A stretch of DNA of 64,000 bases, taken from contig JBHLJY010000009.1 in assembly GCA_048887225.1 (NCBI GenBank), positions 27,205 to 91,204 on the forward strand, written 5' to 3'. Under the pieces are notes generated by a model. The model saw nothing but the letters and a program-made list of their open reading frames with translations, was not told where the DNA came from and ran no database searches. This document shows, piece by piece, positions 33,166 through 39,764 of the stretch (position 1 is its first letter; each line of letters starts with the position of its first letter). Both the position numbers and the translations under genes were made by a program. Origin of the DNA: Candidatus Hodarchaeota archaeon. Its GTDB lineage: Archaea; Asgardarchaeota; Lokiarchaeia; Sigyniarchaeales; SOKP01.

Positions 33166-33765
33166 TTAGTCGCTAAGTTCCAATTCTTCTTCACTTTCTT
33201 TGATAGCATTTACAAATATTTCAGTAACCATTCTAAACGCTTTTTCTACATTTTCTCCTGTTTTTGCCGATGTCTCAATATAAGGGATCTCCATGTTCTT
33301 GTATCCTGGATATTTTATATACAAGGATTTTATAAATCTGACAACTTCTTTATTATCTATTGACCTTTCTTCTTCTAAATCGACTTTATTTCCAATTAAA
33401 ATAGTGGGAATTGCGGGCTCTTCTAATCCCATATACATGTCATTAAACCAATGTTCTAGATTCATTAAGCTACTAAAACGAGTTAAATCAAAGACAGCTA
33501 AACAAATCATAGTCCCTAAATAAAATAGAGATCTAACTTCCTTAAAATGTGGTTGCCCCGCCAAATCCCAAATTAATACTTTAACTTTTTCACCATTTTT
33601 GCCGATTTGAATTATTTCTGAATAGAAATTGGCACCAACTGTCATTAGATAAGCAGTTGAGAAAAATCCATGGCAGAAATTCTCAGCTAGACTTGTTTTT
33701 CCTGTAGCACCGTCACCAATCAAGACAGCTTTTGCAAGGTAAGCATAATCTTTAGAGATGCTCAT
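33166..33765 (-). CDS. Rab-like small GTPase (Ras superfamily)
   Basis: G1 GDGATGKT, G2 T in YLMTVG, G3 WDLAGQ, G4 NKVD, G5 ETSAK. Confidence 0.93.
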   Translation of the reverse strand: MSISKDYAYLAKAVLIGDGATGKTSLAENFCHGFFSTAYLMTVGANFYSEIIQIGKNGEKVKVLIWDLAGQPHFKEVRSLFYLGTMICLAVFDLTRFSSLMNLEHWFNDMYMGLEEPAIPTILIGNKVDLEEERSIDNKEVVRFIKSLYIKYPGYKNMEIPYIETSAKTGENVEKAFRMVTEIFVNAIKESEEELELSD

Positions 33766-35523: not shown

Positions 35524-36423
35524 CTATTTTTTATATTTTAATCCATGTTTCTTTTCTCTTCTAATAAATTTCTCCACATCGTAGGGGATTTTTTCGCCTG
35601 TATCTACGATTCTTCTTAATGTAACTTTTTTACTTTCTTCTACCATCATTTGGGTAGGTTGATATTTTCTAGCAGGATTTCCAATATATATCCAATCAGG
35701 TTCTAAAATTTGTCCGATGTGTGTTGTTGCCCATACACCTAACGTTGTACCTTTTCCAATAACAGTACCAGGTGCGACAATTGCATTTCCTCCAATAATA
35801 ACATGATCTCCAATTATAACTTTTTTTATTAAAAGATGATCTGCAATAATCATACTTGATAGTACCACAGCTCCTTGCCCCAACATTATACTCTCCCCAT
35901 AATCAATAAATTCAACATCACTCCATCCGTCGAACATCGTACTTTTAAAGTCTGCTCTCATGTCACACATTTTAAAAGCTAAATTAGAGGCCCAAGGAAA
36001 GGCAAAATTATTCCAAGTCCAAAAAATAAATTTTTTAATGGCTATTCTAAGACAATAAAAATAATAATCCTTATCTTTTTTATCTATTCTAAAAAGGCCT
36101 TCTCGTGGTTTATGAATTAATTGTAAAATTAATAAGAAAAGTTTACCAAAAAGCAAACTAGAGAGAATATAAATTCCCCACCAAGCCATTACATCAACAA
36201 TTATAATTAAAATTCTCCACCAATTTGAAAAAGTCCCATCCATCGCAGAGGTATAAAATGTTAAAATTAAAACAGATGGCATCATAAATGATAATATATG
36301 CAATAGACTATAGAGAAATATTGCTGTTGGCGTCCAGGTAAATGCATTTGTAGTTATTGGATATTGTTCTATGTCGATGGATTCAAAATCTTCAATATTA
36401 ACATTTTTACCCTCATTCTCCAT
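35524..36423 (-). CDS. 2TM plus hexapeptide-repeat (LbH) acyltransferase-like protein, one module
   Basis: 2 TM, HKPREG..YY, then hexapeptides VIIGDHVIIGGNAIVAPGTVIGKGTTLG and YIGNPAR. Confidence 0.85.
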   Translation of the reverse strand: MENEGKNVNIEDFESIDIEQYPITTNAFTWTPTAIFLYSLLHILSFMMPSVLILTFYTSAMDGTFSNWWRILIIIVDVMAWWGIYILSSLLFGKLFLLILQLIHKPREGLFRIDKKDKDYYFYCLRIAIKKFIFWTWNNFAFPWASNLAFKMCDMRADFKSTMFDGWSDVEFIDYGESIMLGQGAVVLSSMIIADHLLIKKVIIGDHVIIGGNAIVAPGTVIGKGTTLGVWATTHIGQILEPDWIYIGNPARKYQPTQMMVEESKKVTLRRIVDTGEKIPYDVEKFIRREKKHGLKYKK

Positions 36424-38026
36424 TATATTCCCCCCCTGTGAATCTTAAAATTTCTTCTTTTTTGAGTCTTCTGATTGGAAAGCCTGAATATATTCCATTA
36501 TCTCCAATTTTATCGTATTTTATTGTTGTAGCACTTGGTAGAAACGTTGCGTGATTTCCTATTTCCAAGCCTGGCATCCCACCAGTTAAAGAATTAAAAA
36601 CACAATTATTGCCAATTTCTACTCCGAAGAAAGTTAGATTCTCCTCGCCATAGACACCATCTACAAGGTGATTAGATAGGTGAGCAAAGGTTCCTAAATA
36701 ACAATTCTTTCCAAAATTAATATGGCTATGAATATAAGATTCTTCTAGAACTGTACCTTTTCCAATTTTGTTAGAACCGATAAATCTTAACTCCCATTTA
36801 AGCAACCATGGAAATGGTGAACGCATAATTGCGAAAATTGGATATTTCATTAAAAAGGATCTAAAATGATAATAATCTAACATAGTTGAAGATTCAGATA
36901 GATTTCTATCAAAAAGACCTTGAGCAGGTCCTCTTTTATCCGCAAATCTATAAATCCACCTTGTAAATAAAGCTACAAAGAATAGATGTAACAAATAAAT
37001 ACTAATAAAAATCAATGGAGTGAGAAGTAAGATAATAATTATTTTCAAATCTAAAAGTAGCCCAAAAGAAAATGGAATTGTTAGAAGATTAGGAATGAGG
37101 AATCCAAAAAAAAAAAAGATAAAAAGAAAGCCAGGTATTATATAGGAACCACCAGTAATAAGCCAACCCGATGATATATATGCTTGATAAGGTACACTTA
37201 ACGCTTTTGTTTCTGCTTTTAGGATAACCTCATTAACTTCTTTTTCAGTATCCTTTTCAAAGATCTGTTGTTTAATCTCTTTTTTATTTTTTAAAGGGCT
37301 GTTTGTCATAATTCTTCTAGCTGGTATACCATTATATATCGAATTGCCTTTAAGATGTTGATTAATTGTAGTCATAGTATTTGCTCCAAGTATTGTGTTA
37401 GATTCTATAATAGTTCCAGGAGCAACGCAAGAATGTGCAGAAATAATAACATTATCTTTTATTACAACTTTCTTTATAAGTAATTTATCTCTGATAATAA
37501 TATTAGACATTATGATACTTCCTTGCCCAATTTTTACATTTCTCCCAAATTTAATAAATTCACAATCAACCCAACCTTCATTCAATGAATTAATTCTATT
37601 TGTTTTTACACCAAGTATTTTTAATGCCAAGGTTTCAAGAATTGGTAAATTTATTTGACGTGCCAACCAAAAGGGCCATTTTCTGATTATAGCCCTCAAG
37701 CTCCAATAGCAATATTCCTCATCGTTTTTATTTCTATTAAAGATCCCCTCTCTTGGCTTATGCATTATATTTATAAAAATGAGGAAAATTTTTGCCACTA
37801 TTATTGAACTTATAAATAGAATAATTATACCTATGAAGAAAACAAACGGAAAAAGAATGAAGAAAATTATATTAAACTTCGGAAAAAACTGCCAAAAATA
37901 CCAAAACCAAATTATTGCTGGCTGAGCACTTAAGGTAATAATAATAAAATAAATAATAAGATAGTTTTTTTTCGCTAAAGTATTAGTTGTTCTAGGCCCC
38001 TCTCTTAATGATGATGGTATCGAAAT
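36413..38026 (-). CDS. 2TM plus LbH acyltransferase-like protein, two modules; probable non-canonical start
   Basis: Two LbH blocks ending YNGIPAR and YSGFPIR; frame open from the track start 37798 to 38038 and encoding 2 TM homologous to the paralog; ATT at 38026 preceded by GTGAT. Confidence 0.75.
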   Translation of the reverse strand: MSIPSSLREGPRTTNTLAKKNYLIIYFIIITLSAQPAIIWFWYFWQFFPKFNIIFFILFPFVFFIGIIILFISSIIVAKIFLIFINIMHKPREGIFNRNKNDEEYCYWSLRAIIRKWPFWLARQINLPILETLALKILGVKTNRINSLNEGWVDCEFIKFGRNVKIGQGSIIMSNIIIRDKLLIKKVVIKDNVIISAHSCVAPGTIIESNTILGANTMTTINQHLKGNSIYNGIPARRIMTNSPLKNKKEIKQQIFEKDTEKEVNEVILKAETKALSVPYQAYISSGWLITGGSYIIPGFLFIFFFFGFLIPNLLTIPFSFGLLLDLKIIIILLLTPLIFISIYLLHLFFVALFTRWIYRFADKRGPAQGLFDRNLSESSTMLDYYHFRSFLMKYPIFAIMRSPFPWLLKWELRFIGSNKIGKGTVLEESYIHSHINFGKNCYLGTFAHLSNHLVDGVYGEENLTFFGVEIGNNCVFNSLTGGMPGLEIGNHATFLPSATTIKYDKIGDNGIYSGFPIRRLKKEEILRFTGGEYNGE

Positions 38027-38234
38027 TGTAAGATCACTTTAAACAATAATGTTTCTTTGCCTAAATATTAAAAATAATACTGTTTTTCTAATTAAATCTT
38101 TTTATTCGAAAATAAGGTTTTCAAAAAACCTCTTAAAATTTTTAACATATGGAAATTTCAAATTCATAAATATTAAAATCTAATAACATTGCTAATAAAA
38201 TCTTAAAGTTAAATTATATGGGGATAAAAAAATA

Positions 38235-39764
38235 ATGAGTGAACCATTTTTTTGGTGGACAGAAGAGCAAAAAGAAATTGCTCAAAAGGTATCCCAATTT
38301 GTTGAAGATCATCTTGAAGAGGCGGAATCTTATTTTTGGAATAAGAAATTCCCATGGCCTCTGGTAAAAAAGGTAGCTGCCCAGGGTTATTTTGGAGCAG
38401 GGATACCAAAAGAATATGGAGGTTTAGAATTAGGTGCAACTGGTAGTTGTATTGTTGCTGAGGGACTAGGGAGATTATATGCCGTAGGACATGTTTTTAC
38501 TGTTTCTATGCTTGCGGGATTGGAACAGATGTTAAAATTTGCATCTGAGGAACAAAAGCAAAAGTGGCTTCCTAAATGTGCGAAAGGTGAACAGTTAGGT
38601 GCTTTATGTATTACCGAGCCCTTTGCTGGTTCAGATGCTGCTAATGTAATGACCACGGCTGTAAGAGATGGCAATGAATGGATTATTAACGGAAAAAAAA
38701 GATTCATAACTGGAGGGGGCGTCTCTGATAGGTATTTCATTTATGCGAAAACAAGTGATGATCCCGAGGATAGAAAACAATATAGTCATATAACATCATT
38801 TATTGTCGAAAAGGGAACTCCAGGTTTTTCTTTAGAAAAAGTTAATCCCTTAATTGGATTTGAAAACGTTCCTAATGCTTATTTAGACTTTGACGATGCA
38901 AGAATTCCTGACGAAAACCGTATTGGCGCTGTTGGTAAAGGTTGGACTGTTATGATGGCTGGTCTAAATTTTGAGCGGCTGATTGCCGCAGTAGTTTTTA
39001 GTGGAATAATTTTTGATGTGATAACTCTACTTTTTTATTATACTAAAAGGCGTGTGCAATTCAATCGCTCAATTAACCAATTTCCTGGTATTCAAAATGA
39101 AATCGCTGATATAATCGCAAAATACAAAATGGCTAGATTGTTTTCCTATCATTGCGCATACTTGTTAGATATGGGAATGGAACCTATGGTTGATGCTTCA
39201 ATCTCTAAAATGTTCAATACCCAATGGGTAAGAGAAATAGGGACTAAAGCAATTCAAGTAATGGGGGGCGATGGATTGACGAAATTTTATCCGACCGAAA
39301 GGATATTAAAGGAAGCAAAGATAGGTGAAGTTGCTGCTGGAACAAATGAGATCCAAAAAATGATAATTTATCGCTTTTCAGCTATGCTTCCTAAATATAA
39401 TCATACTCACAGGCTTAGATGGAACGATGAAGTAAAAGCACCAGTTCTCTCAAAAAAAGAATCGCAATTTAAAGGATTAGAAATTAATGACGACAACATA
39501 CTAAAAGTTATAGCCCATGATTATAAAGTAAATCCAGGGATATATATGACTCCTGATGATGTTAGGGAAGATATCGGTGGAAGTCGTTCAAAAATAAAAA
39601 GATGCTTTGAATCCCTAGAAGAAAAAAAATTAATTGTGACTCATCGAGATCGAGCTGGTAAGATAGCATTAGTTAAAGCTACTTATGAAGGATTAAAGAA
39701 AGCATTTCCAAAGGAATATTATCGGTGGTTCCCAGACTGGTACTCCGATTCGGATAAATTTTAG
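38235..39764 (+). CDS. acyl-CoA dehydrogenase with C-terminal wHTH-like extension
   Basis: ITEPFAGSD, INGKKRFIT, RVQF, QVMGGDG, GTNEIQK; extra 120 aa or so at the C-terminus. Confidence 0.92.
   Translation: MSEPFFWWTEEQKEIAQKVSQFVEDHLEEAESYFWNKKFPWPLVKKVAAQGYFGAGIPKEYGGLELGATGSCIVAEGLGRLYAVGHVFTVSMLAGLEQMLKFASEEQKQKWLPKCAKGEQLGALCITEPFAGSDAANVMTTAVRDGNEWIINGKKRFITGGGVSDRYFIYAKTSDDPEDRKQYSHITSFIVEKGTPGFSLEKVNPLIGFENVPNAYLDFDDARIPDENRIGAVGKGWTVMMAGLNFERLIAAVVFSGIIFDVITLLFYYTKRRVQFNRSINQFPGIQNEIADIIAKYKMARLFSYHCAYLLDMGMEPMVDASISKMFNTQWVREIGTKAIQVMGGDGLTKFYPTERILKEAKIGEVAAGTNEIQKMIIYRFSAMLPKYNHTHRLRWNDEVKAPVLSKKESQFKGLEINDDNILKVIAHDYKVNPGIYMTPDDVREDIGGSRSKIKRCFESLEEKKLIVTHRDRAGKIALVKATYEGLKKAFPKEYYRWFPDWYSDSDKF

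Follow-up and report, generated by a model that had tools for sequence, protein, structure and literature searches.

A putative hetero-trimeric, Pls-like membrane acyltransferase split over two genes of an Asgard archaeon

According to two papers on the homopoly(amino acid) synthetases Pls (ε-poly-L-lysine synthetase) and PosA (δ-poly-L-ornithine synthetase), the membrane-embedded left-handed β-helix (LbH) domain of this type has been studied only as the tail of bacterial and fungal enzymes resembling non-ribosomal peptide synthetases (NRPSs); these sources present its structure and mechanism as still unsolved (PMC10522769, PMC9205021). For the C terminus of PosA, one of them describes an AlphaFold model with six bent transmembrane (TM) helices and three five-turn LbHs in approximate three-fold symmetry, two helices and a strand lying between each TM pair and its LbH; the archaeal homologues it mentions are all full-length (PMC10522769). 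A literature search that left the PosA supplementary tables outside its range found no paper on stand-alone, split or archaeal split forms of the domain. We describe here two overlapping genes, A (36413..38026, minus strand, 537 residues) and B (35524..36423, minus strand, 299 residues, ATG start), from a 64,000-nucleotide stretch of an Asgard archaeal contig (the window). Judged from sequence, their novelty most likely lies in being a stand-alone, split version of the known Pls-type architecture that does without an amino-acid-activating part, and their products probably assemble into a hetero-trimeric, Pls-like membrane acyltransferase. Split and differentiated subunits offer smaller pieces for structural work on the Pls-type domain, and show directly that its three module positions are non-equivalent. 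The envelope and secreted products of Asgard archaea are almost unknown, and a lineage-specific, multi-copy family of putative membrane acyltransferases is a concrete candidate for cell-surface or polymer chemistry.

Three module types on two genes

The three modules encoded by A and B, each about 260 residues long, are built in one order: a TM hairpin leads through a short strand and two helices into an LbH. As the original prediction had it, two of them lie in A and one in B; all three align with one another over their full length and share a set of motifs, a resemblance that is far beyond chance. Two hydrophobic helices are apparent from the sequence of every module (long helices stand at these places in the AlphaFold models too). 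A basic P-x-E/Q-G turn follows the second TM helix (HKPREG in A1, RGPAQG in A2 and HKPREG in B), an aromatic helix comes after it (EYCYWSLR, DYYHFRSF and DYYFYCLR, respectively) and the LbH closes on I-Y-x-G-x-P-x-R (IYNGIPARR, IYSGFPIRR and IYIGNPARK). Hexapep/LbH repeats are the sole domains that Pfam finds in either protein (PF00132; 47.3 bits for A, and 25.8 bits for B, slightly short of the 27-bit cut-off).

Module 1 of A (A1-type; 37241..38026, minus strand) opens with a conserved N-terminal peptide, SIPSSLREGPRTTNTLAKK, and runs through its two TM helices and two linker helices into the LbH. Module 2 (A2-type; 36416..37219, minus strand) is the most divergent of the three types, and its LbH carries several invariant histidines (H433, H449 and H453). 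The last of these belongs to NHLVDG (residues 452–457; 36656..36673, minus strand), an A2-specific His-x-x-acid motif that supplies a candidate catalytic histidine; N452, H453, V455 and G457 do not vary in an alignment of 49 A orthologues. Mean column identity in that alignment is 72%, with many invariant polar residues, histidine included. B consists of a single B-type module, followed by a C-terminal tail of about 45 residues past the LbH (35524..35660, minus strand), in which R-R-x-V-D-T-G-E-(K/R)-I-P is nearly invariant; A1 and A2 modules have no such tail, which may be a docking or regulatory element. We infer a cytoplasmic position for the LbH domains, on a base of six membrane helices, because basic residues flank the TM ends (the N-terminal REGPRTTNTLAKK, and HKPREG after TM2), in keeping with the positive-inside rule.

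What carries the case for a three-part assembly is the co-occurrence of the module types. In 59 of 64 orthologous loci a two-module open reading frame (ORF) is followed by a one-module ORF, the 2+1 pair whose conservation the original prediction had asked about; among the other five, contig ends truncate four, and in the last B is broken in two. Sixteen more distant loci consist of tandem single-module genes, exactly three of them in 13 cases (the exceptions being L101, with three and a fragment at the locus end, L093, with six, and L096, cut by a contig end). Separate hidden Markov models (HMMs) built from the A1, A2 and B modules were used to classify these genes. The order is A2-type, B-type, A1-type in all 14 complete 1+1+1 loci and twice over in L093, where one gene that is ambiguous by HMM is placed in the B clade by the tree. 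A third layout, a fused [A2·B] ORF of ~600–645 residues followed by [A1], is found at six places in further regions of same-family genomes, and these regions contain seven more trios. Finally, a full A1·A2·B fusion (P0135, 797 residues) is present in two records of metagenome-assembled genomes (MAGs), and a second fusion (P0017, 808 residues), seen on a single short contig, could be an assembly artefact. Every layout is a rotation of one cyclic order, A1 → A2 → B, and every complete locus has each of the three types once, which bears out the claim that A and B co-occur as a three-part unit. Because the types co-occur 1:1:1 in this fixed order, they are most simply read as an obligate 1:1:1 pseudo-trimer that has six TM helices and one position for each non-equivalent module, as LbH proteins lead one to expect; comparative genomics strongly backs A and B as such a unit.

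A quick tree gathers the A2 modules into one clade (support 96 by the Shimodaira–Hasegawa-like approximate likelihood ratio test, SH-aLRT), with A1 and B together as its sister. Within it, one and the same sub-grouping of loci recurs in the A1 group and in the B group, and this recurrence within each type indicates that whole module sets were duplicated as units.

Two structure predictions were made. B alone (AlphaFold2) gave TM and linker helices with a predicted local distance difference test score (pLDDT) of 70–93 and an LbH below 50, and this model was left out of the fold search because of its low LbH confidence. The fusion P0017 was folded with A rows only, because an alignment holding both A and B orthologues had put A rows onto the B part. 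The resulting model, with alignment depth for the A part only, has a mean pLDDT of 69.9 and a predicted template-modelling score (pTM) of 0.59. Three times over, it shows two long helices, a four-residue strand, two helices and the periodic, two-residue strands of a β-helix; the B-type LbH reaches ~58–80 pLDDT without alignment depth for that part. The order of elements is the one given for the PosA C-terminal model (PMC10522769).

Searching the PDB with Foldseek placed the nearest solved folds among maltose and galactoside O-acetyltransferases, VCA0836 and the N-acyltransferase AntD (target template-modelling score ~0.55–0.61), with no membrane Pls-like structure among the matches. A sequence search of the PDB likewise returned only soluble LbH proteins and no Pls-like chain, its best match falling in the C-terminal coils of the LbH. 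LbH enzymes of the Maa/LacA kind are trimeric, with active sites between subunits.

The family is small and lineage-restricted. At least 249 homologues of A are found at E ≤ 0.001, all named ones from Asgard MAGs. Among 151 genomes sampled from the phylum, A has matches at E ≤ 1e-40 in that of the window, in all 25 others of its GTDB family, in one of two from the sister family and in none of the remaining 123. The proposal of an Asgard system is therefore right about the hosts and too wide in scope, close relatives being confined to one GTDB family and its sister. A profile of B, run against 1.84 billion cluster representatives, reached only 658 proteins at E ≤ 0.001, of which 45 passed E ≤ 1e-30. 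Matches in the ESM Atlas comprise only Asgard clusters and one bacterial ‘DapH/DapD/GlmU-related’ cluster. A search for longer fused forms found no homologue of A above 941 residues, which is weak evidence; among the best 120 of 209 matches to P0017, only P0017 itself exceeds 560 residues.

Relation to the Pls/PosA domain

The C terminus of Pls/PosA, like A and B, comprises three modules in which linker helices join a TM hairpin to an LbH, giving six TM helices altogether, and has a His-x-x-acid motif in just one of the three. It differs in that A and B have no adenylation or thiolation domain in cis or nearby, distribute their modules over two genes (paralogues use three or one) and belong to an archaeal host. 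The histidine motif goes with module type: of 105 A2 modules, 86 have H-x-x-[EDN]-G-[IVLM]-[FY]-G, none of 104 A1 or 97 B modules has it, and A2-type modules without the full motif still keep the histidine. For comparison, 15 modules were cut from five annotated Pls/PosA genes; H-x-x-E-D occurs in all five of their C3 modules and in none of the ten C1/C2 modules, and hhalign pairs the A2-motif histidine with the C3 histidine.

Profile searches lead to the same family. TIGR02353 (‘NRPS_term_dom’, a 695-position model spanning three modules with a curated cut-off of 423.1 bits) is the best NCBIfam match of B (36.2 bits) and the second of A (39.4 bits); in 14 further module proteins it ranks first eight times and second three times, and is absent from three. 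Its matches begin at profile position 81–84 in some family members. Against the 15 Pls modules, hhalign gives probabilities of 98.9% for A1, 96.3% for A2 and 97.7% for B, mostly from the LbH. The best of these scores pair B with C1, A1 with C2 and A2 with C3, by small differences; the pairing fits the cyclic order, without support from the tree, and would suggest a one-to-one orthology B = C1, A1 = C2, A2 = C3. No match to TIGR02353 above the cut-off was found in any of the 151 sampled Asgard genomes. The original prediction of a profile match to TIGR02353 and Pls C1–C3 is thus borne out by rank (first or second) and by hhalign (96–99%), and fails on score, with 36–39 bits set against 423.

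Intermediates in sequence do exist. The B profile reaches P0271, an NRPS of 1711 residues with adenylation, thiolation and TIGR02353 parts, at E 3.7e-10 among the 1.84 billion representatives, and also the triple-module proteins P0224 and P0244; TIGR02353 is the best family across such proteins, at 168–201 bits. P0224 (683 residues, 184 bits) is a stand-alone triple-module protein, and P0244 (960 residues, 168 bits) joins a short-chain dehydrogenase to three modules. An Asgard single-module protein of 267 residues, L105, covers TIGR02353 positions 5–226 at 92.8 bits; when it was compared with plasmids by tblastn, 13 of the 25 matches listed were NRPS genes, 11 of them annotated Pls/PosA. Like A and B, the proteins P0224, P0244 and L105 have TM–LbH modules without NRPS domains, and their sequences come closer to Pls than those of A and B do.

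Related arrangements were seen elsewhere. In another Asgard lineage, three genes at locus L111 (G119:C4:30000-49000) each match a different third of TIGR02353 (C1, C2 and C3). The TM–LbH genes of L111 and of L112 (G139:C19:68000-86000) encode 220–255 residues, and their neighbours encode ~550-residue MFS transporters, a class-V aminotransferase, an amino-acid-kinase/metallo-β-lactamase fusion, an M42 peptidase and a UbiA prenyltransferase.

Several results count against a close kinship with Pls, or against an obligate trio. The TIGR02353 scores of A and B are about one-tenth of the cut-off and confined to the LbH, and for A the model is outscored by NF058585, of the soluble acetyltransferase type (49.6 vs 39.4 bits). 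Run the other way, the HMMs of the three types match five real Pls proteins only in three LbH segments. Comparing linker profiles alone with Pls gave scores within those of column-shuffled controls (A1 16.2 vs a maximum of 17.0, A2 12.0 vs 14.6, B 6.5 vs 13.6). In the quick tree Pls C1–C3 group with one another, separate from every Asgard module (support 87), which favours independent triplications and speaks against A2 = C3, with the reservation that its Pls rows are compositionally deviant and the Pls placement insecure. The pTM of the P0017 model is only moderate. As to the trio, four [A2·B] ORFs have no adjoining A1 gene in the regions examined. The window's own genome has one complete A2-B-A1 trio besides A and B (C10:63843-66577); its other paralogous loci, with only two, two and one recognisable modules, hold A2 and B types followed by an unclassified membrane ORF of 288 residues (C30:13672-15522), two A1/B-like modules (C1:249382-250977) and a lone A2-type gene (C14:53731-54594). 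Such incomplete sets might combine in trans.

The evidence as a whole points to a link between A/B and Pls that is real but weak in sequence. Because of the sub-cut-off scores, the LbH-only matches, the null result for the linker and the tree, A and B are not filed as TIGR02353 members; they are filed as distantly related to the Pls-type domain and as probably working like it. The likeness to the Pls C terminus claimed in the original prediction accordingly stands for architecture, as described for the PosA model (PMC10522769), and has no clear support from homology outside the LbH.

Proposed mechanism, donor and competing explanations

We infer a physical heterotrimer, together with its chemistry, donor and acceptor, along the following lines. 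A and B would stand on their own as a split relative of the polymerisation domain at the C terminus of Pls/PosA. Protein A would contribute the A1 and A2 modules and protein B the third, their three LbHs packing round a pseudo-three-fold axis above a six-TM bundle. By analogy with Pls and with LbH acyltransferases dependent on coenzyme A (CoA), the assembly would take its acyl or aminoacyl group from a phosphopantetheine thioester and pass it to an acceptor at the membrane, either an amine or a hydroxyl; the thioester would most likely be a CoA ester. There would be a single asymmetric active site, its catalytic histidine probably coming from the A2-type module. The acceptor may be held at or in the membrane base; Pls is reported to hold its growing chain non-covalently (PMC9205021).

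A CoA thioester is the preferred donor for three reasons: the fold is an LbH, the closest solved enzymes depend on CoA, and a carrier protein is lacking. Pfam finds no adenylation or carrier domain in the neighbouring genes, as had been noted before, and PF00550 (PP-binding) has no match in the window's own genome, which is 98% complete. The suggested search for partners with adenylation and thiolation domains came up empty, with no conserved adenylating neighbour in the 64 orthologous and 16 paralogous loci. The same genome has at least 18 AMP-binding genes, none on the window's contig among the 18 matches listed. An acyl-CoA donor had originally been suggested as one possibility from the acyl-CoA dehydrogenase gene divergent from A (38235..39764, plus strand; Pfam). 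That clue finds no firm support: such a gene is the immediate divergent neighbour in 34 of the 55 orthologous loci with enough flank and in none of the 16 paralogous loci, and a nitroreductase takes its place in at least 11 other orthologous loci. The dehydrogenase is a frequent neighbour, not a proven partner.

Among the competing explanations, the one that survives best, unlikely as it is, makes A and B an ordinary membrane-tethered O-acetyltransferase of sugars, polysaccharides or lipids (Maa/LacA/WcaF or YvoF kind), using acetyl-CoA as donor and a glycan or lipid head group as acceptor. The likeness to Pls would then be that of any LbH, and the TM hairpins would be independent anchors. The Foldseek results agree with it, Maa, LacA, VCA0836 and AntD being soluble CoA-dependent LbH trimers and the closest solved folds to the soluble part of the module, as do the PDB sequence matches, all to soluble LbH enzymes. 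So do the NCBIfam ranking of A, in which NF058585 (heptaprenylglyceryl phosphate O-acetyltransferase) comes first and WcaF-type models next, and the non-significant likeness of the linkers to Pls. Known O-acetyltransferases of the Maa/LacA/WcaF kind are, however, soluble homotrimers of one gene without TM helices, whereas A and B are membrane-anchored, with a TM hairpin in every module as in Pls and three differentiated types co-occurring 1:1:1 in a fixed cyclic order. The histidine motif, confined to one type, is common to A2 and Pls C3 only, and TIGR02353 tops the list for B and for 8 of 14 relatives. This explanation differs from the hetero-trimeric Pls-like acyltransferase mainly in substrate, not in architecture.

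Quite unlikely, taken as one joint claim, is a larger scheme that extends the hetero-trimeric acyltransferase. A and B, with 4–6 paralogous sets per genome, would be the cores of NRPS-independent polymerases or acyltransferases of one Lokiarchaeia-like Asgard lineage, each a hetero-trimeric six-TM machine with one A2 active site, fed by CoA thioesters from AMP-forming ligases. Such a machine might work on a cationic or isopeptide polymer or on an envelope component, building or decorating it as it crosses the membrane. The split, permuted genes would be living intermediates in the origin of the fused Pls C-terminal domain, and the AUU start of A (below) a dosage control keeping the subunits stoichiometric.

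It is improbable that A and B are a true NRPS-independent polymerase of homopoly(amino acid) or isopeptide type, drawing on aminoacyl thioesters or otherwise activated amino acids provided in trans to make a cationic polymer like that of Pls. The architecture is that of the sole characterised enzymes with this domain (PMC10522769, PMC9205021). Supply in trans does occur: on a Pseudonocardia plasmid (NZ_CP012185.1, 3124-7097; L117), a 796-residue ‘Pls/PosA family’ gene follows a separate AMP-binding gene, so that in bacteria, too, the adenylation part can have a gene of its own, distinct from that of the membrane domain. The many AMP-binding genes of the window's own genome would fit such supply. 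What speaks against a polymerase is the missing carrier domain, the position of the listed AMP-binding matches away from the window's contig and the want of a conserved adenylating neighbour at either class of locus, along with the weak sequence link to Pls and a tree that sets the modules apart from it.

The start of gene A and the surrounding genes

The 5′ end of A is unusual. The gene had been taken to extend to 38038. The frame is indeed open between stops over 36413..38038 (minus strand, 541 codons), but 38038 is merely the first codon past the upstream stop, and homologues put the start at ATT 38026. Among the 80 codons from the upstream stop to a GTG at 37798 there is no ATG, GTG or TTG, yet the two TM helices of module 1 are both encoded here. 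Full-length homologues of A open with M-SIPSS and continue to REGPRTTNTLAKK; the window reads I-SIPSS at the same place. The initiation region (38024..38038, minus strand) has a Shine–Dalgarno-like AGTGAT (38038..38033) directly downstream of a TAA stop (38041..38039), then a 6-nucleotide spacer and the ATT (38026..38024). The 3′ end of the genome's own 16S rRNA, ...GGATCACCTCCT, is complementary to GTGAT, and (A/G)GTGA(T/A) is conserved 6–7 bases upstream of the A start codon in related loci.

We surveyed the codon at this position in the window and the 64 orthologous loci. A strict pattern for the conserved peptide is matched by 57, where the codon before it is ATT in 43, ATA in 9, ATC in 3 and ATG in 2. 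The remaining eight have ATT in three, an Ile codon in one and ATC right after TAA in two (L085 and L087); two are cut by contig ends. The upstream stop usually lies 1–5 codons before the peptide. Since the homologues place the start there, we conclude that A begins at ATT 38026 and is 537 residues long, with a non-canonical Ile-codon start that is conserved in about 60 loci.

Two other routes to the frame were tried and rejected. A −1 frameshift from the out-of-frame GTG in GTGAT would use a frame that ends after 10 codons in the window, with no slippery site, and after two codons in L026. For a frameshift at the upstream A8 run, no upstream frame holds a start. Database entries of the A family are mostly shortened to 450–515 residues, beginning at an internal methionine; the start is a warning to gene callers, and also a clean case for archaeal translation initiation, with AUU, AUA or AUC conserved across dozens of assemblies.

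At its other end, A overlaps B by 11 nucleotides (36413..36423, minus strand; ATGGAGAATGA), as first noted, the A stop lying at 36413–36415 and the B ATG at 36423. A G-rich run in the last codons of A precedes the overlap, which is 11 nucleotides in 28 of 59 related loci and 8–20 nucleotides in 38 of them; this suggests translational coupling. The AUU start would probably keep the level of A low, with B coupled to it through the overlap, and the two features together may set the subunit ratio.

The weakest competing explanation, a non-catalytic structural membrane LbH trimer (compare the heterotrimeric γ-carbonic-anhydrase module of mitochondrial complex I) or a gene-prediction artefact or pseudogene, draws on the lack of ATG, GTG or TTG at the 5′ end of A and on γ-carbonic-anhydrase and complex-I CA subunits among weak PDB and NCBIfam matches (18.1 and 15.3 bits against a cut-off of 250 for the γ-carbonic anhydrase model), and is very improbable given the conservation of frame, N-terminal peptide, Ile start codon and GTGAT in ~60 independent assemblies, the level of identity and the invariant polar residues, histidine included, across the 49 orthologues, and loci at which no conserved respiratory neighbour genes were seen. 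Proteins of the γ-carbonic-anhydrase kind carry three zinc-binding histidines at a usual spacing.

Only A and B are constant across the loci. Besides acyl-CoA dehydrogenase and nitroreductase, neighbouring genes encode a GNAT protein, an MFS_2 transporter, a Ras-like GTPase, an α/β hydrolase, a family-less membrane protein of 240 residues, an ACT protein and methionyl-tRNA synthetase. The acyl-CoA dehydrogenase has a C-terminal extension of ~130 residues with faint matches to winged-helix regulators (TrmB, E 0.11; Sta1, E 0.17). A Ras/Roc-family small GTPase of the kind typical of Asgard genomes (33166..33765, minus strand; Pfam Ras, 135 bits) lies 1.8 kb downstream of B; at this place it has matches in 6 of the 64 loci, three of which are close relatives (66–93% identity).

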